NCBI GenBank assembly: GCA_036677445.1
Contig: JAVBWI010000027.1
Location: 21,453 to 85,452 of the forward strand
From: Clostridia bacterium
Lineage (GTDB): Bacteria > Bacillota > Clostridia > Christensenellales > CAG-138
Direction of reading: 5' to 3'
Length of the DNA: 64,000 bases
Each line of letters opens with the position of its first letter. Position 1 is the first letter of the stretch. A program made the translations under genes and the position numbers. This document shows, piece after piece, positions 54,608 to 61,418 of the stretch. A model generated the notes under the pieces. It was not told the DNA's origin. It saw nothing but the letters and a program-made list of their open reading frames with translations, and did not search any database.

Positions 54608-55513
54608 TTATTGGGCGTCCTCGCCCCACATTTTCGGCTCGCAGGCAAGCTCCACGCCGGAATGCGCGAATACCTTTTCCTTTACGTACGCAATCAGCCT
54701 GAGCACATCGTCCGCCGTGGCGTCCCCGTTGTTTACGATGAATCCCGCGTGCAGGGTGCTTACTTGCGCACCGCCCACGCGCGCGCCCTTGAGCCCGGCG
54801 CCCTCTATGAGCGCCCCGGCGTAACAGCCGGGCGGACGCTTGAATATACTGCCGGCGCTGGGGTAGTTAAGCGGCTGCTTTTCCCGCCGCCTGGCCATGT
54901 AATCCGCCTGGCGTTGTTTTGCGCCCCCGTCATCCGGCGAAAGCGCAAGCGTGGCGGCGAGCACGACGCGTTCGGGCGCGCAGTAGACGCTTGTACGGTA
55001 GCCAAGCTCTCCTTCCTGCACTTCGCGGTCGTATATGCGACCGTTTTCCAGTACGCGGACGCTGCGCAGCACCTGTTTCATCTCCCCGCCGTATGCGCCC
55101 GCGTTCATGGCGCATGCGCCGCCGAGCGTGCCCGGGATGCCGCAGGCCCATTCAAGCCCCTGCAGATTGCGTGAAAGCGCCTCCTGCGAGAGAGCGGTAA
55201 GCGTGATCCCCGCGCCTGCCGTTAGCAGATTTCTCTGTTCTTCGATGGAAGCCATAGCGGGGCCGATGACGATGACCAGCCCGCGAATTCCGCCGTCGCG
55301 CACGATCAGGTTGGAACCGTTGCCCATTATATAATACGGTATTTGCAGCGCGTCGCACGCGGCGACGGCGCGGCGTATTTCCCCGCCGTCTTGCGCATGC
55401 AGCACCGCATCCGCGGGGCCGCCCAGCCGGAACGTCGTCAGCGTACGCATAGGCACGCCGCGCTGTATATGCATATCCGTAAGTTGGCTTAACAGCGCAT
55501 CCATACGCTCCAA
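54608..55513 (-). CDS. murB: UDP-N-acetylmuramate dehydrogenase (start TTG 55513 or ATG 55504)
   Basis: TFRLGGPAD, GNGSNL, GIPGTLGG..MNAGAYG, PSAGSIFKRP, HAGFIVN, LACEP. Confidence 0.96.
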   Translation of the reverse strand: MERMDALLSQLTDMHIQRGVPMRTLTTFRLGGPADAVLHAQDGGEIRRAVAACDALQIPYYIMGNGSNLIVRDGGIRGLVIVIGPAMASIEEQRNLLTAGAGITLTALSQEALSRNLQGLEWACGIPGTLGGACAMNAGAYGGEMKQVLRSVRVLENGRIYDREVQEGELGYRTSVYCAPERVVLAATLALSPDDGGAKQRQADYMARRREKQPLNYPSAGSIFKRPPGCYAGALIEGAGLKGARVGGAQVSTLHAGFIVNNGDATADDVLRLIAYVKEKVFAHSGVELACEPKMWGEDAQ

Positions 55514-55692
55514 GGCCGCACTTCCTTTCCCAATAAAAAACTGCATTCGTCTTTCTATTGTAGCGCACTCGCAGGCTTTGTGCAACGCCGCAGCAGGCGC
55601 GAAGCCTGGTATGTAGTGCGATGTATGTCAAATCCTGCTTACTTCATTCAAAAATGCAGCGCTGCATTTTCACAGGACGCCTCTGACAAGCC

Positions 55693-55710
55693 TTAAGGTT
55701 AATTTAAGGT
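55693..55710 (+). promoter_or_regulatory. Tandem direct repeat, candidate OmpR-family binding site
   Basis: TTAAGGT-N4-TTAAGGT (11 bp period) about 105 bp upstream of the flavoprotein gene. Confidence 0.55.
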
Positions 55711-55814
55711 AAATTTTTAACAAACTGTTATAGAATCAAGACAGCAAAGCGGCGCATCGTATATATGCCGCACATGGTACGCCGTTTAGTATATGCAGCA
55801 TAGGAGGAAAGAGA

Positions 55815-57635
55815 ATGCTAGGTTCACGAATCAAGGCGATCAGCCTGATACTTTCACTGATGCTCCTGGTATCGGCCTGCGCGGGCACAACCGTACCCGC
55901 AACAGCAACGCCTGCGGCTGAGCCGGCCGCGGCGCCTGAGACGATGCCGGAAGCGGTCGCCTATACCCCCGGTACGTATACGGCGGTAAGCACCGGGCAC
56001 AACGGCGAGATGACTGTGGAAACAAAGTTCAGCGAGAATGAGATCGTTTCCGTCAAGGTGCTGGAAAGCGCCGAAACCGCGCACATTTTCCGCGCGGCAG
56101 CCGAACGGATCCCGGCGGCCATCGTACAAGGCCAGACCCTCAACGTCGACACGGTATCCGGCGCCACCATCTCGCGCGCGGCCATTTTGAGCGCGGTAGC
56201 CGACTGCGTCAGGCAGGCGGGCGGCAACGACGAGTCGTTGCGCAATAAAGAACTCGCGCCGGTTACAAAGAACGCGGACCAAACGCTCGAAACACAGGTG
56301 CTGGTGGTGGGCAGCGGCATCGCAGGGCTTTCCGCGGCCATCGAGGCCGCCGGTAACGGCGCCAAAGTGCTGCTGCTTGAAAAGCTCGCGGTCATAGGCG
56401 GCAGCTCCTCCATCAGCGGCGGCAAGCTGCAGGCTTCCGAATCCTTCGTTATGAAGGCGGACGGCATTGAGGATACCAAAGAGGCCTTTGCCAAATACCT
56501 GATGGATTGCGCGCGCGACCTTGCCGACCCGGAAATGATAGAAGCCATCGCGTACAATTCGGCGGACAACGTACAGTGGCTCTCGGACCTGGGCGTACAG
56601 TTCATGCCCGACCTTGTGGCGCTGCACCCCTACCGTACCCCGTGGCGCGGGCATCTTCCCGTTGAGCAGAAGGGCTACGGCTACACGACCCCCATGGAAG
56701 AAAAAGCGCGCGCGCTGGGTGTGGAAATCCTTACGGAAACGCCGGCCAAATCCCTCATCATGGAAGACGGCAAAGTGGTTGGTGTGAACGCGCAGGATAA
56801 AACAGGCGCGGCGGTCGCCATCAAGGCCGGCGCCGTTATCTTAGCGACCGGCGGCTTTGACCGCAGCCCGGAACTGATGGAGCTGTATTCGCCCCTGATT
56901 AAAGACCATACGTCCTCCGGCGTGGTGGGCAATACCGGAGACGGCCTCATCATGGCGCGGGACGCGGGTGCGGAAATCATCGCCCGTTCTGGCGCTATAG
57001 GCAACTGCCTGGATACCACATTCACGTATATGACCAACACCAACGGCGGCAGCTACCAGGCGGCCTCCACCGGCTTGTTCGTAGCGGGCGAGGGTAGGCG
57101 TTTTGTGGATGAAAACAACTTCAGCTTTGCGCGTACGGCAGCCATGCTGGATAACGGGTATACCTGTTTCTACAGCATATTCGACCAAAAGAGCTATGTG
57201 GACGCTTTGGAACGCGCTATTTCCATGCAGCGCGCATTCAAGGCCGACAGCATGGAAGAGCTGGCGGGCATGACCGGTATGAATCCCGCCGTACTTTCCG
57301 AAACGGTAACGCGCTATAACGAGCTCTGCGCAGCCGGGGAAGACAAGGATTTTCATAAGCCCGCTCAGTTCCTCACCCCCGTGGATCAGGGTCCCTATTA
57401 TGCGCTGCTCCATACGTACGTGGTATCCGGCACGTTCGGCGGCCCCAGGATCAACATGGACGGCCAGGTGATCAATACCGCGGGCGAGCCCATTCCCGGC
57501 CTTTATGCCGCAGGCGAGGTTGCGAACGGCCAGTTCCTCTGCTATGAATACCCGGGCAGCGGATCGGCGCTGATTTCCTACCTGACGTTCGGCAGGCTCG
57601 CGGGCGCGGCGGCCGCCAAAACGGCAATCGGCTGA
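55815..57635 (+). CDS. Lipoprotein: FMN-binding (flavinylation) domain plus flavocytochrome c / FAD_binding_2 oxidoreductase
   Basis: Lipobox VSAC; VDTVSGATIS motif; GSGIAGLSAA, LEK, ATGGF, GNTGDG, PGLYAAGE. Confidence 0.9.
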   Translation: MLGSRIKAISLILSLMLLVSACAGTTVPATATPAAEPAAAPETMPEAVAYTPGTYTAVSTGHNGEMTVETKFSENEIVSVKVLESAETAHIFRAAAERIPAAIVQGQTLNVDTVSGATISRAAILSAVADCVRQAGGNDESLRNKELAPVTKNADQTLETQVLVVGSGIAGLSAAIEAAGNGAKVLLLEKLAVIGGSSSISGGKLQASESFVMKADGIEDTKEAFAKYLMDCARDLADPEMIEAIAYNSADNVQWLSDLGVQFMPDLVALHPYRTPWRGHLPVEQKGYGYTTPMEEKARALGVEILTETPAKSLIMEDGKVVGVNAQDKTGAAVAIKAGAVILATGGFDRSPELMELYSPLIKDHTSSGVVGNTGDGLIMARDAGAEIIARSGAIGNCLDTTFTYMTNTNGGSYQAASTGLFVAGEGRRFVDENNFSFARTAAMLDNGYTCFYSIFDQKSYVDALERAISMQRAFKADSMEELAGMTGMNPAVLSETVTRYNELCAAGEDKDFHKPAQFLTPVDQGPYYALLHTYVVSGTFGGPRINMDGQVINTAGEPIPGLYAAGEVANGQFLCYEYPGSGSALISYLTFGRLAGAAAAKTAIG

Positions 57636-57656
57636 TCCACAATTGCAGCAAAAACG

Positions 57657-57681
57657 CAAGGCGACCATATTGGTCGCCTTG
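57657..57681. terminator. Inverted repeat between convergent reductase and kinase genes
   Basis: CAAGGCGACC-ATATT-GGTCGCCTTG. Confidence 0.6.
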
Positions 57682-57685
57682 TATG

Positions 57686-59185
57686 TTAATCAAGTGCGGG
57701 CAGGCAGATGAGGAATGTGCTGCCTTCCCCCTGGGCACTATGCACCCGGATATCGCCGCCGTGGCTTTGCACGATGCTTTGCGCGATAGACAGCCCCAGG
57801 CCGGTGGATTCCGGGTTGCCTTTGCGGGCATTGTGATAATACCGGTCAAACAAATACGGAAGCTCCGCCGCGGGGATACCGGGGCCGGTATCCTGGACGG
57901 CGATGCACCCGCCGTCCCCGTCGAAGGCGCATTCTATTTCAATGCGGCCGCCTGCGGGCGTGTAGTGCAGCGCGTTCTCTAAAAGGTTCTGCAGGGCCTG
58001 CTGCAGGCGGAAGCTGTCGCCCAGTATATTGCCGTCGGACTTCACCCGAAGCTCCACCGCAATATCCTTTGCGCGCGCCGCAAGCCGGGCGCTTTCATAT
58101 GCGCCGCGGCAAAGCCGCGAAAGCGAAAGCGCCTCATGCTCGAATGTGACCTTGCCTTCCTCAAGCTTGGCGATGAGGAAAAGATCCTCGATCAGGCGGC
58201 TTAAGAACTCCAGGCGCTCCTGCATGTTCAGCTTGCGCTGCGCGTCGCCTTCGTTATGCGTTTCCAGCATGTCCGTATAGCCGCGCAGCACGAAAAGCGG
58301 GCTGCGCAGGTCATGGAAGATATTGAGCATCAGGGAATGCTTGCGCTTCTGCTCGGCCACGATTTTGGCGTTGGTTTGGGCAAGCTCCGCGGTGCGCGCA
58401 GCCACCTTGGCGTCCAGGTTGGCGTTGGCCTTGGCCAGCTCCGCCACAAGGCGGTCGCTTTCGTTGAACTTGCTTACGAATTTGTGGTTGATGACAAGCA
58501 GGCAGGCCACCACGAACACCAGAAAGTCCATCTGCGAAGCCGTAACGTAGGCAAACACCGTTTCCATGGGCAGCGTCCCCTGATTGACCATGGAAAGGTA
58601 ACTGCGCAGGCCGTACCGCGCGGCCATACCGAACAGCAGCACATAGGCGAGGGGCTTTTCATCATGAGCGGCCAGCACCAGGCAGATAAGCCCCGCAAAA
58701 TACGGCATATTCGCCAGCATGATCTGCAATAGCGTACCCGGTATCGTATAGCGAAGCAGCAGCAGAAAGCCGTACAGGAGCATGAGCCCCAAGGGGGAAA
58801 GCAGGAAATTCCAGCTTCCGGGAAGGGAAGAGTTGGTCAGCCAGAAGCACAGCGCGTAGCAAATGACCACCGTGAATATATCCAGCGGCAGCTTCAGCCA
58901 GTGAAGACTGTCCTCCATCAGCCCGACGGAGGCGGAAAGCGTCCGTACAAAAGCGATGGCAGCCAGCACAAACAGCCATAAAAGGTAAGTTTCACTGCGT
59001 TTTTGCAGATACAGCGACAGGCTGTAAATGGTAATCAGAAAGCAGGCGCCGCAGGAAAATGTGTTGACCCAGCCCGGGGACAGCGCACCCACAGGCAGCG
59101 CCAGGCCGGAGAGCATGATGCAGCCGTATTGGAACAGGTATTCCACCGCCAGAAAGAAACAGATGGGAGGCAATGCTTTGCGCAT
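57686..59185 (-). CDS. Multi-TM sensor histidine kinase
   Basis: Several TM helices then coiled coil, FHDLRSPL H-box, QNLLENAL, DTGPGI, GLGLSI; GAGGG RBS. Confidence 0.92.
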   Translation of the reverse strand: MRKALPPICFFLAVEYLFQYGCIMLSGLALPVGALSPGWVNTFSCGACFLITIYSLSLYLQKRSETYLLWLFVLAAIAFVRTLSASVGLMEDSLHWLKLPLDIFTVVICYALCFWLTNSSLPGSWNFLLSPLGLMLLYGFLLLLRYTIPGTLLQIMLANMPYFAGLICLVLAAHDEKPLAYVLLFGMAARYGLRSYLSMVNQGTLPMETVFAYVTASQMDFLVFVVACLLVINHKFVSKFNESDRLVAELAKANANLDAKVAARTAELAQTNAKIVAEQKRKHSLMLNIFHDLRSPLFVLRGYTDMLETHNEGDAQRKLNMQERLEFLSRLIEDLFLIAKLEEGKVTFEHEALSLSRLCRGAYESARLAARAKDIAVELRVKSDGNILGDSFRLQQALQNLLENALHYTPAGGRIEIECAFDGDGGCIAVQDTGPGIPAAELPYLFDRYYHNARKGNPESTGLGLSIAQSIVQSHGGDIRVHSAQGEGSTFLICLPALD

Positions 59186-59204
59186 TTGTACGCCCTCCGA
59201 TATA

Positions 59205-59220
59205 ATACTATGCATAGTAT
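59205..59220. promoter_or_regulatory. Perfect 16 bp palindrome in the divergent HK/RR intergenic region
   Basis: ATACTATGCATAGTAT, overlapping a TATAAT. Confidence 0.55.
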
Positions 59221-59242
59221 ACCATACAGAAAGGACAGCGCC

Positions 59243-59965
59243 ATGATCCGTGTACTGTTGGTTGAGGACGACGGAAGCATCGCCGAAATCATACGCTATT
59301 ACCTGAAGCAAAGCGGGGAATACGAAGTCACCGTGGCGCCGGATGCGTCCGCGGCCCTGACGAAGGCGCAGGCGGAAGCGTTCGACGTGATTCTCCTGGA
59401 TGTGATGCTGCCGGATACGGACGGCGTGGAGCTGTGCACGCACTTTAGGGAAAAGCTGTATTGCCCCATTATTTTTATTTCCTGCATCGACGATGAGGAG
59501 ACAATCATCCGCGCGCTGCGTATGGGTGGAGACGATTATCTGGTAAAGCCCTTCAACTGTGAAATGCTGCAGGCCCGCATGGAGGCAAACCTCCGGCGCG
59601 TACGGATGGAGCAGCGCCACGAGGTGCCCGAGCGTATCGTATTTGCGCGGTTTTGTGTGGATACGAAAAAACACAGCGTTGAAAAAGACGGGAAAAGAAA
59701 AGACCTTTCCCCCATCGAATACAACCTTCTGCAGTTTTTTATCAGCCATCCGGAAACGAATTTCACGCTCAGCGCGCTGTATGAAAAGATATGGGGCCGC
59801 CCCAGCCTGGGCGATGTGCGCACGGTGATGGTACACATTCACAATTTGCGCAAAAAGATCGAAGACGATCCCAATAACCCGGAATATCTGTGCAGCATCC
59901 GGGGAAAGGGATACGTGTTTCATGCGGCCGGAGGGCAGGAGGGCCCTTCCCGGCAACTTCTTTAA
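59243..59965 (+). CDS. OmpR-family response regulator
   Basis: LLVEDD, ILLDVMLP, DDYLVKPF, winged helix (RTVMVHIHNLRKKIE, RGKGY). Confidence 0.95.
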   Translation: MIRVLLVEDDGSIAEIIRYYLKQSGEYEVTVAPDASAALTKAQAEAFDVILLDVMLPDTDGVELCTHFREKLYCPIIFISCIDDEETIIRALRMGGDDYLVKPFNCEMLQARMEANLRRVRMEQRHEVPERIVFARFCVDTKKHSVEKDGKRKDLSPIEYNLLQFFISHPETNFTLSALYEKIWGRPSLGDVRTVMVHIHNLRKKIEDDPNNPEYLCSIRGKGYVFHAAGGQEGPSRQLL

Positions 59966-60026
59966 CAAATCATTCGATCAGGCCGCAACGGCCTTCTTTC
60001 TTCTTCATCTATTACACAGCTTATTG

Positions 60027-61175
60027 TTATTGCGCATTTTGCGCATCCCCCATCGCCTGCGCCATGCGCGCATAAAACGCATTTTTGCCTGCGGCGTCGC
60101 CCGTGAGCGCGGTTTGCGCCTCCTGCAGCAACGCGTCGTAATGCTGCTGCCACAGCGCGGGCCTGGGGCAAACCGGCGTGCGGTACGCGTTATAGAAGGT
60201 TTGCAGCTGTCCGTCCGCATAGTGCAGGTCTTCTGTATGCGCCACGGCGGGCAGCGCGCCCAGCGCCGTTACTTTCGCCTGCGACTGTTCCCCGAGCAGC
60301 AGCGTAATGAGCCCCGCGGCATGTTCGGCAAACCCGCCCTGCGCGCCGGCGTCGATGCCGATATACTGTACCTGCTCGGTAAACCCGCCAAGCGGCAGCG
60401 CGTCAAAAGTGAAACCGCCGGACGCCATTTTGCGGGATAAGTCGCCGAACGCCCGCCCGTCGCCGATCATGAACGGCACCTGCCCCGCCTTGAAATCCCC
60501 TTCCTGCGCCATGGCGCCCGTTAGCCCCATACGCGCGGCAACGATGGGAGGCGCGCACAGCGCGCCGTAGCGCGTTGTGGAACGCGAATCCATCGCCGCC
60601 TGCAGCACGTCCGCAAGCGCGGAGGGCTCCCCCGCCTTCACCGGCGCCGCCGCGCCCACTTCCGGCCAGGCTAGCCCCAGTTCCTGCACCAGCACGGTGT
60701 TGCCCAGCAAAAAATAGCCGCTGTACAGGTATGGCGCGGCATACGCCGTACCCTCGGAGGACAGCGGCAGCATATTGCCCGCGAAGGCGGGCAGCGTGAG
60801 CGAAAGCGGAGCAAACTGCTCCGCCGTGAGCTCGCCCATGGGGAATGACCACGCATCCGGACGCTCGCCGCGGGAAAGGCGCTCCTGCACGGCCTCGGCG
60901 GTCAGCCCCAGCACCTCGATGTATACGCCCGCGTGCGCGCGCTCATACTGGGAAGCGACGTTTTCCAAATAAGACGTGATGCTTCCCTGGCAGGTCTTAA
61001 ACCCCACCACATGCCATACCGTGATGACGCCGCTCCACGCTTCCTTTTCGCCGGAGAGCCATTCGCGGTAATAATTGCGCCCCAGCGCCCCTTCCAGATA
61101 GGGCGGCGCAAACACAAGAAACGCCACCAGTATGGCGGCCACCGCCGCACGCAGCACCAGCGTGAATCCCTTCAT
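60027..61175 (-). CDS. Membrane-anchored hypothetical protein, extracellular solute-binding-like
   Basis: GGAGGG RBS, N-terminal TM, GVITVWHV..YERAHAGVYIEV pattern; possible in-frame TTG at 61232. Confidence 0.65.
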   Translation of the reverse strand: MKGFTLVLRAAVAAILVAFLVFAPPYLEGALGRNYYREWLSGEKEAWSGVITVWHVVGFKTCQGSITSYLENVASQYERAHAGVYIEVLGLTAEAVQERLSRGERPDAWSFPMGELTAEQFAPLSLTLPAFAGNMLPLSSEGTAYAAPYLYSGYFLLGNTVLVQELGLAWPEVGAAAPVKAGEPSALADVLQAAMDSRSTTRYGALCAPPIVAARMGLTGAMAQEGDFKAGQVPFMIGDGRAFGDLSRKMASGGFTFDALPLGGFTEQVQYIGIDAGAQGGFAEHAAGLITLLLGEQSQAKVTALGALPAVAHTEDLHYADGQLQTFYNAYRTPVCPRPALWQQHYDALLQEAQTALTGDAAGKNAFYARMAQAMGDAQNAQ

Positions 61176-61214
61176 GTCTGTCCCCCCCTCCGAGGCGTTT
61201 ACGCTCGTTTCAAT

Positions 61215-61418
61215 GTATGGCGGATCGTGCAAAAGAATACCCCCTCCGCATACACCCGCCAGTACAAGAGGCGGGTAAAAACGTATGGCGCATCGTGCAA
61301 AAGAATACCCCCTCCGCCTGCACCCGCCAGAACAGGAGACGGGTGAAAACGTATGGCGCGCCGCGCAAAAGAATACCCCCTCCGCCTGCGTCCGCCCGGA
61401 CAAGGGACGGTAAAAAGG
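61215..61418. repeat. Three tandem 68 bp repeats
   Basis: Units start at 61215, 61283 and 61351; invariant 21-mer GCAAAAGAATACCCCCTCCGC; a hairpin in each unit. Confidence 0.95.

Follow-up and report, generated by a model that had tools for sequence, protein, structure and literature searches.

An exported flavin reductase with a Tyr-type active site and its probable two-component control in a Clostridia bacterium

Exported flavin reductases set which unsaturated organic compounds anaerobes use as electron sinks, and most of them are without a known substrate. Proteins in which an FMN_bind domain is fused to a fumarate-reductase-like part are numerous, and 3,070 of them have already been catalogued. 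Gut bacteria have exported FAD_binding_2 reductases (e.g., CirA-D of Holdemania filiformis and CrdA-D of Eggerthella lenta), which are induced by their own substrates (Little et al., bioRxiv 10.1101/2022.12.26.521950). In several of these clades both classical arginines are missing and a Tyr remains where the enzyme described here has Tyr579, and such Tyr-type sites of gut bacteria reduce cinnamates and resveratrol (bioRxiv 10.1101/2022.12.26.521950). BaiP and BaiJ of Lachnoclostridium scindens convert 3-oxo-delta4 bile-acid intermediates to 5-alpha products (PMC9645264). Here we describe a reductase gene of this kind, with the genes of a histidine kinase and a response regulator beside it, in a 64,000-nucleotide stretch (the window) of a Clostridia bacterium genome (assembly GCA_036677445.1, contig JAVBWI010000027.1, positions 21,453 to 85,452). 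We consider it probable that they form a self-contained, substrate-inducible cassette for an extracytoplasmic FMN_bind + FAD_binding_2 flavin reductase. The cassette is an ordinary one, of a class of bacterial electron-sink enzymes that has been described before. Its features, in window positions, are as follows.

55693..55710, forward strand: direct repeat TTAAGGT-TAAT-TTAAGGT (TTAAGGTTAATTTAAGGT) with an 11-bp period (7+4+7), a putative OmpR-type regulator site
55731..55736, forward strand: hexamer TAGAAT, the probable -10 box of the reductase promoter, which aligns with TATGAT (contig L015) and TATAAT (contig L017)
55815..57635, forward strand: exported lipoprotein flavin reductase gene, an open reading frame of 606 residues
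55878-55880, forward strand: codon of the lipobox Cys22 of the reductase
55995-56210, forward strand: FMN_bind domain of the reductase (Pfam)
56166-56168, forward strand: predicted attachment residue Thr118 of the reductase for flavin mononucleotide (FMN)
56298-57545, forward strand: FAD_binding_2 domain of the reductase (Pfam)
57657..57681, no strand assigned: GC-rich hairpin with an 11-bp stem between the convergent reductase and kinase genes
57686..59185, reverse strand: sensor histidine kinase, 499 residues from an ATG with a GGAGG ribosome-binding site, convergent with the reductase gene
59243..59965, forward strand: OmpR/PhoB-type response regulator, 240 residues, with Response_reg and Trans_reg_C (Pfam)

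The reductase starts with MLGSRIKAISLILSLMLLVSAC22, a signal peptide with a VSAC lipobox. This export signal was assigned by reading the sequence, in which a hydrophobic N-terminal segment ends in V-S-A-C22. Because of the lipoprotein signal, the protein is expected to be tethered to the cytoplasmic membrane, on its outer face. Residues 61-132 match FMN_bind (PF04205; 1.9e-12, 48.1 bits against a cut-off of 22) and residues 162-577 match FAD_binding_2 (PF00890; 3.6e-63, 214.6 bits). The FMN_bind domain contains the ApbE-type flavinylation motif VDTVSGAT118IS, which fits [S/T]GA[S/T]. These features support the reading of the protein as an exported flavoenzyme that ApbE could flavinylate, of the FrdA/UrdA class (Meheust et al. 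2021). The genome encodes two ApbE proteins (PF02424, 306 and 224 bits), both above the Pfam cut-off, at least the first of which is itself a lipoprotein. Since Rnf also requires ApbE, its presence is necessary for a flavinylated reductase and not specific to it. The initial annotation had described a lipoprotein with a DTVSGATIS FMN motif and a flavocytochrome-c-type domain and had looked to an apbE gene elsewhere in the genome. The lipobox, the two Pfam domains and the two PF02424 matches agree with it.

Listeria monocytogenes FrdA and Shewanella oneidensis UrdA (extracytosolic fumarate and urocanate reductases flavinylated by ApbE), together with Shewanella Fcc3, have the same build as the reductase, with an export signal, an FMN_bind entry domain for which flavinylation is predicted in the reductase, and the same fold around flavin adenine dinucleotide (FAD). 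Fcc3 and UrdA are its best matches among solved structures (E 1e-54 and 6e-48; Foldseek template modelling (TM) score up to 0.81 on UrdA). The AlphaFold2 model of the reductase has a mean pLDDT (predicted local distance difference test) of 91.1 and a pTM (predicted TM score) of 0.88, and with this model Foldseek places Fcc3, UrdA, 4AT0 and KstD at the top. This ranking does not discriminate among these four.

The active site does separate the reductase from FrdA, UrdA and Fcc3. It was read from HMMER alignments to Shewanella Fcc3/Ifc3 and from a 73-row MAFFT alignment. The HHTMGG motif of fumarate and urocanate reductases aligns with SGTFGG (S538-G-T-F-G-G), and NRLGGN aligns with EYPGSG (E578-Y579-P-G-S582-G). 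Opposite the catalytic Arg of (T)RD stands Ser437, within ENNFSFAR (F436-S-F-A-R440), and the column of Fcc3 His365 holds Asn (Asn397). All four substrate-binding or catalytic His/Arg positions are thus replaced, and the alignments support the view that this cannot be a fumarate or urocanate site. Going by these motifs, the pocket of the FAD domain is of a Tyr type (SGTFGG, EYPGSG, Arg440) instead of the His/Arg pocket. The score of the reductase against TIGR01813 (flavocytochrome c) is 267.8 bits, under the cut-off of 285.45, which three members of its clade pass. Identity as a fumarate or urocanate reductase was rejected on both grounds, the replaced catalytic His/Arg and this score.

Arg440 deserves attention because it lies three residues past the column of the Fcc3 catalytic Arg and is invariant in all 41 rows of the clade of the reductase. 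In the AlphaFold2 model it stands on helix 437-446, one helical turn past that column. It may reach into the substrate pocket, an orientation taken from helix periodicity alone. Carboxylate substrates are still compatible with the site, because the clade-invariant Arg440 is close to the replaced catalytic Arg. The non-fumarate site of the initial annotation thus stands as to the replaced His/Arg residues, but it is not unusual, since it defines a clade of 64 rows and Tyr-type sites are already published. Likewise, the missing catalytic Arg is correct for its own column, occupied by Ser437, but an invariant Arg follows three residues on.

This 64-row clade has full support in the Shimodaira-Hasegawa-like approximate likelihood ratio test (SH-aLRT 100). 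It consists of the reductase, one paralog and 62 of the 63 other database and reference rows, and its members share S/T-x-T-F-G-G and E-Y-P-x-x-G. P0119, which is 33% identical to the reductase, falls outside and groups with Arg-type enzymes. Within the 64 rows the reductase belongs to a clade of 41, while BaiP and BaiJ are in a separate clade of 14 (SH-aLRT 100). Among the enzymes compared, BaiP and BaiJ are by sequence the nearest characterised ones, 36% and 34% identical to the reductase from end to end (308 and 239 bits); their sequences were translated from the synthetic genes in the supplement of PMC9645264. Like the reductase, they have FMN_bind and FAD_binding_2 over the full length, TFGG and EYPxxG, and the fumarate His/Arg residues are lost. 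Unlike the reductase with its lipoprotein signal, they have no signal peptide, start directly at the FMN_bind-like domain and are cytosolic. Their flavinylation motif has decayed (GAEV, GADL), while that of the reductase is intact. Differences between the two clades are consistent: in the Bai clade, Arg440 and Gly539 are each replaced by Val, and Gly-Ser582 by Cys-Cys. BaiP and BaiJ are encoded in bile-acid-inducible operons, the reductase beside murB and a two-component system. Membership in the clade of BaiP/BaiJ-type bile-acid 5-alpha-reductases was ruled out, as the reductase is in the other clade and has no bai operon context.

KstD (4C3X) and delta4-(5alpha)-KSTD (4AT0) have the fold of the reductase (TM 0.74-0.77 normalised to the target). 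Their C-terminal Tyr-Pro-Gly-x-Gly-like motif, where fumarate reductases have Arg, is resembled by Tyr579-Pro-Gly-Ser-Gly. They differ from the reductase in being cytosolic dehydrogenases without an FMN_bind domain, and identity is 25-28%. The KstD-type Tyr/Gly motif that had been proposed holds as a resemblance of YPGSG, but the KstD equivalogs of NCBIfam score far under their cut-offs (179.7 against 789 bits for NF009478, 152.9 against 788 for NF005882 and 136.6 against 793 for NF009479). The model of the vinyl phenol reductase VprA (NF053717) gives 224.6 bits against a cut-off of 600, and the score for the TcuA family is also far under its cut-off. No NCBIfam equivalog cut-off is reached by the reductase, by BaiP or by the six clade members scanned. 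The cardiac glycoside reductase Cgr2, the subject of work by Koppel et al. in 2018, reportedly has a twin-arginine translocation (Tat) signal, a partner gene for a cytochrome (cgr1) and an iron-sulfur cluster with Cys ligands. At this locus neither a twin-arginine motif in the signal peptide nor an adjacent cytochrome gene was found. Other steroid reductases were considered as relatives and rejected as members of different families: OsrA and OsrB are iron-sulfur flavoenzymes of PF00724, and SpiE is one of the short-chain dehydrogenases/reductases.

The direct repeat TTAAGGTTAATTTAAGGT upstream of the reductase gene is the sole match in the window with up to two mismatches allowed, and the sole exact match in the 3.4 Mb genome. 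A second genomic copy was found neither exactly nor with one mismatch, and the six sites with two mismatches are within chance expectation. Upstream flanks of the orthologous reductase genes are otherwise unalignable. A short island is kept, which reads CTTAAGGTTAATTTAAGGT in the window, CTTAATGTTAATTTAAGGC in L015 and CTTAAGGTTAATTTTAGAT in L017, the contigs of the two nearest database homologs of the reductase (68-69% identity). The distance from the repeat to the -10-like hexamer is exactly 20 nucleotides in all three, and TAGAAT at 55731-55736 is the probable -10 box. The second half-site overlaps the place of the -35 box, and a consensus scan of the promoter gave no sigma-70 -35/-10 pair. 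Direct repeats of 7 bp with an 11-bp period, in the -35 position, are the textbook arrangement for activators of the OmpR/PhoB family. Position and conservation support a conserved promoter element placed as an activator site of this type. The pho box of PhoB has the same design (two 7-bp direct repeats, 4 bp apart, in place of the -35 box). The present case differs from it in the repeat sequence, in a kinase sensor that is all membrane and has no known domain, and in a predicted regulon of a single gene. The reductase gene is probably the only target of the regulator.

The kinase begins with about 6-7 hydrophobic or transmembrane segments within 240 residues, and a coiled coil, HisKA and HATPase_c (Pfam) come after them. 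It has no sizeable extracellular loop, and its membrane region matches no Pfam sensor domain at E up to 10. The hairpin at 57657-57681 is a likely terminator for both the reductase and the kinase gene. The kinase and regulator genes diverge across a 57-bp spacer (59186-59242), in which there is a perfect palindrome of 16 bp, ATACTATGCATAGTAT; the corresponding place in L015 reads TAGTATACTA. This palindrome may be an operator, or it may simply represent overlapping divergent -10 boxes. Two elements named by the initial annotation, a convergent multi-transmembrane kinase with an OmpR regulator and a TTAAGGT-N4-TTAAGGT repeat upstream of the reductase, are confirmed, the former by its Pfam domains (HisKA/HATPase_c; Response_reg/Trans_reg_C) and the latter by its uniqueness in the genome and its conservation in two orthologous promoters.

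The three genes travel together. In L017 the reductase gene is followed by the convergent kinase and the divergent regulator, exactly as in the window. L015 also has all three, with three genes (one for a resolvase) inserted between reductase and kinase. A kinase search of 301 genomes of the order yielded a fourth ortholog, L033, in which the reductase is 76%, the kinase 62% and the regulator 70% identical. A contig scan with one short peptide pattern also gave at least one close ortholog (69%) among the matches listed. In total four genomes keep the reductase (68-76%), the kinase (51-62%) and the regulator (59-70%) together in the same convergent/divergent layout, and the active-site motifs are identical in all four orthologs. 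Full-length relatives of the kinase exist in five of the 301 genomes, with up to five per genome. At least 9 of their 13 loci have a flavin reductase gene next to the kinase gene, and most of the others are cut off by contig ends. The partner reductases have several types of active site, the classical Arg type included. Because the partners span Arg-type enzymes too, the kinase-regulator pair appears to be a general control module for such reductases. Kinase-linked flavin reductases of gut species follow the same pattern (bioRxiv 10.1101/2022.12.26.521950).

As a separate observation, L017 contains at 969-1360, upstream of the reductase ortholog and beside an rve-family transposase gene, two copies of the GC-rich palindrome CCTTTGGCGGAGGTyTGGAGGCGGAGCCTCCATAAAACCTGA. 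This suggests that the L017 cassette lies in DNA rich in mobile elements, and the L015 cassette has its internal resolvase gene.

The cassette could work as follows. The reductase would carry a covalent FMN on Thr118, and electrons would pass from a membrane donor to this FMN and on to FAD. FAD would then give a hydride, together with a proton, to an enone or an enoate, a small organic molecule with an activated C=C bond. In this step the substrate carbonyl would be polarised by Tyr579, while Arg440 would hold an anionic group or pass on the proton. The kinase, embedded in the membrane, would respond to the substrate or to a lipophilic signal related to it and phosphorylate the OmpR-type regulator, which would bind TTAAGGT-N4-TTAAGGT at about -50 to -33 and switch on a promoter without a -35 box of its own. 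The reaction may serve as an electron sink rather than as classical respiration.

The nature of the electron donor bears on this last point. Searches for a UbiA-family prenyltransferase (MenA/UbiA/DmkA type) were negative in this genome, which is 96% complete, and positive in 14 of 14 control genomes. They were also negative in the other four genomes with the cassette (G086, G148, G171 and G208), one of which is 98% complete. A quinone-based respiratory chain is not supported, because the UbiA-type prenyltransferase is missing. For the same reason Rnf and/or flavinylated relay proteins would be more likely electron sources than a quinone pool, and published work has already put forward a quinone-independent supply of this kind. 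There is one Rnf complex in the genome, with its rnf operon on C4 and only the canonical RnfD found, and there are several extra FMN_bind proteins. One of these, encoded outside the window, stands alone, apart from the rnf operon:

C2:162477-163835, reverse strand: tri-FMN_bind protein of 452 residues with an N-terminal membrane anchor and three RnfG-like domains (VNAVSGATISS, IDAVSGATVSS and VDAVTGATISS)

This protein may act outside the cytoplasm as a relay that passes electrons to the nine paralogous lipoprotein FMN_bind + FAD_binding_2 reductases of the genome, the window reductase included. The other eight are encoded at the following positions.

C17:291122-292978: lipoprotein reductase
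C17:327842-329731: lipoprotein reductase
C17:161931-164273: lipoprotein reductase
C4:337466-340033: lipoprotein reductase
C4:406046-407986: lipoprotein reductase
C4:422011-423792: lipoprotein reductase
C4:426478-428331: lipoprotein reductase
C23:166314-168497: lipoprotein reductase

Five of these are of the Arg type (HHTMGG, NRLGGN and the catalytic Arg are kept), the remaining three differ in their sites, and FMN_bind occurs twice in two of the eight. None is adjacent to a kinase-regulator pair of the type seen in the window. The proposal of an inducible respiratory ene-reductase is plausible as to inducibility, given the co-inherited two-component system and the conserved promoter repeat, but the word respiratory is doubtful in a genome that is 96% complete and has no UbiA family.

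Several points weigh against a substrate-inducible reductase cassette. For the reductase, as for all of the 41-row clade, substrate, flavinylation, DNA binding and induction are matters of prediction, and the nearest characterised enzymes are cytosolic and just 34-36% identical. Since the contig of the fourth ortholog ends before its promoter, conservation of the operator amounts to three loci. The kinase has no recognisable ligand-binding domain, and the electron donor is a putative one. That the enzyme acts as a reductase rather than as a dehydrogenase is deduced solely from the precedent of its family and from an anaerobic background free of quinones.

As to the substrate, the site allows an activated alkene next to either a neutral carbonyl (enone) or a carboxylate (enoate). 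Arg440 leans to an anionic substrate and the all-membrane sensor to a lipophilic one. A tentative possibility is that the reductase is an enoate reductase for an alpha,beta-unsaturated acid (cinnamate or another phenylpropenoate, acrylate, or a product of lignin or plant breakdown), in which Arg440 binds the carboxylate and Tyr579 is catalytic, much like the cinnamate reductases that work without the arginines in gut bacteria. Digesters and sediments are rich in phenylpropanoids. In three clades that are independent of one another, cinnamate reductases are without the classical arginines, have Tyr at the equivalent of Tyr579 and need clade-specific Arg or Tyr residues. Arg440 is present in 41 of 41 clade members and stands on model helix 437-446, one helical turn past the column of the Fcc3 catalytic Arg. 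That Arg440 points into the pocket is, however, read from helix periodicity of the model, and the 41-row clade holds no characterised enoate reductase.

We consider it unlikely that the reductase is instead specific for steroid or bile-acid-type 3-oxo-delta4 (or delta1) enones, either as a secreted, flavinylated counterpart of BaiP/BaiJ or as a KstD in reverse, with the kinase sensing a lipophilic steroid. Sludge and sediment contain steroids, and an all-transmembrane sensor fits a lipophilic ligand. The closest characterised enzymes (BaiP and BaiJ, with 308 and 239 bits) have S/T-x-T-F-G-G and E-Y-P-x-x-G in common with the reductase, and the 3-ketosteroid delta4-(5alpha)-dehydrogenase 4AT0 is a strong match in sequence and fold. 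Against this, the reductase lies outside the BaiP/BaiJ clade (support 100), which has Val for Arg440 and Cys-Cys for Gly-Ser582; there are no bai or steroid-pathway genes near it; the KstD equivalogs reach just 137-180 bits where 788-793 are needed; and Tyr-type sites reduce cinnamates and resveratrol too. Because Arg440 is invariant in the clade of the reductase and Val in the Bai clade, an enoate with its carboxylate is at least as likely as a neutral enone. The steroid or plant enone first suggested as substrate is therefore retained in part: the nearness of BaiP and BaiJ, with their shared build and motifs, speaks for it, but Arg440 makes an enoate no less likely.

It is very improbable that the two-component system is a mere neighbour without control of the reductase and that the repeat is a chance or unrelated promoter feature. 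In favour of it, regulator binding to the repeat and control of expression are predictions, the kinase-regulator spacer is without a copy of the repeat, and in L015 three genes, the resolvase gene included, separate reductase and kinase. The three genes are nevertheless together in four genomes despite 24-49% protein divergence, and at 9 or more of 13 loci a paralogous kinase/regulator pair stands next to some other flavin reductase. The repeat, moreover, combines 7+4+7 geometry with an OmpR/PhoB-typical promoter position, conservation among orthologs and uniqueness in the genome. Least probable of all is an oxidative role, in which the enzyme would be an extracytoplasmic desaturase of the KstD kind and supply the cell with electrons. 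Dehydrogenases with the same fold and a Tyr-based site do exist (KstD, 4AT0 and cyclohexanone dehydrogenase), but an Rnf-bearing Clostridium without a quinone prenyltransferase has no obvious sink for such electrons, and the characterised FMN_bind-fused members are all reductases.

The substrate-inducible reductase cassette may also be taken further, to a proposal that we hold to be distinctly unlikely. The 41-member clade could represent a third catalytic arrangement (Tyr579, Ser582 and an Arg440 displaced by one helical turn) with a substrate class new to the family, and Rnf could feed exported reductases directly through multi-flavinylated RnfG-like relays such as the tri-FMN_bind protein in quinone-free Clostridia. 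If true, this would mean a ferredoxin-driven, quinone-independent respiration of organic acceptors in digesters and sediments.

The window stretch is nearly complete in sediment and sludge metagenomes and partial in biofilm and bioreactor metagenomes. The metagenome comparison gave no gut sample that contains it, and the habitat is sludge and sediment rather than gut. A comparison of 55400-60100 with the sludge metatranscriptome runs X15, X16 and X20 gave short contigs, at low depth, that match portions of the reductase gene and of murB with 99-100% identity. Note that the tables of X15 and X16 are identical and are probably one dataset filed twice. The matches are weak evidence that the reductase gene is expressed.

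Elsewhere in the window, at 61212-61415, a 68-nucleotide unit is repeated three times in tandem (78-88% identity to the first copy). It is non-coding, lies upstream of spoIIAA-spoIIAB-sigF, and yields spurious repeated peptide motifs in several reading frames.

What is worth keeping from this locus is the conserved, single-target predicted operator, the displaced invariant arginine and the quinone-free background. A single enzyme gene, a dedicated kinase and regulator, a conserved and genome-unique predicted operator and four orthologs make the cassette a clean test case. It could be converted to a reporter for the inducer, and hence for the substrate. The described class to which it belongs is that of the gut-bacterial reductases of Little et al., which are likewise exported, occur as multiple paralogs per genome and often stand beside histidine-kinase two-component systems. 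The host described here differs from those gut bacteria in coming from sludge and sediment, in having nine paralogs rather than tens to hundreds, and in having no quinone prenyltransferase. The class is thereby extended from gut bacteria to sludge and sediment Clostridia without a quinone prenyltransferase, which sharpens the question of how electrons are delivered to such enzymes.

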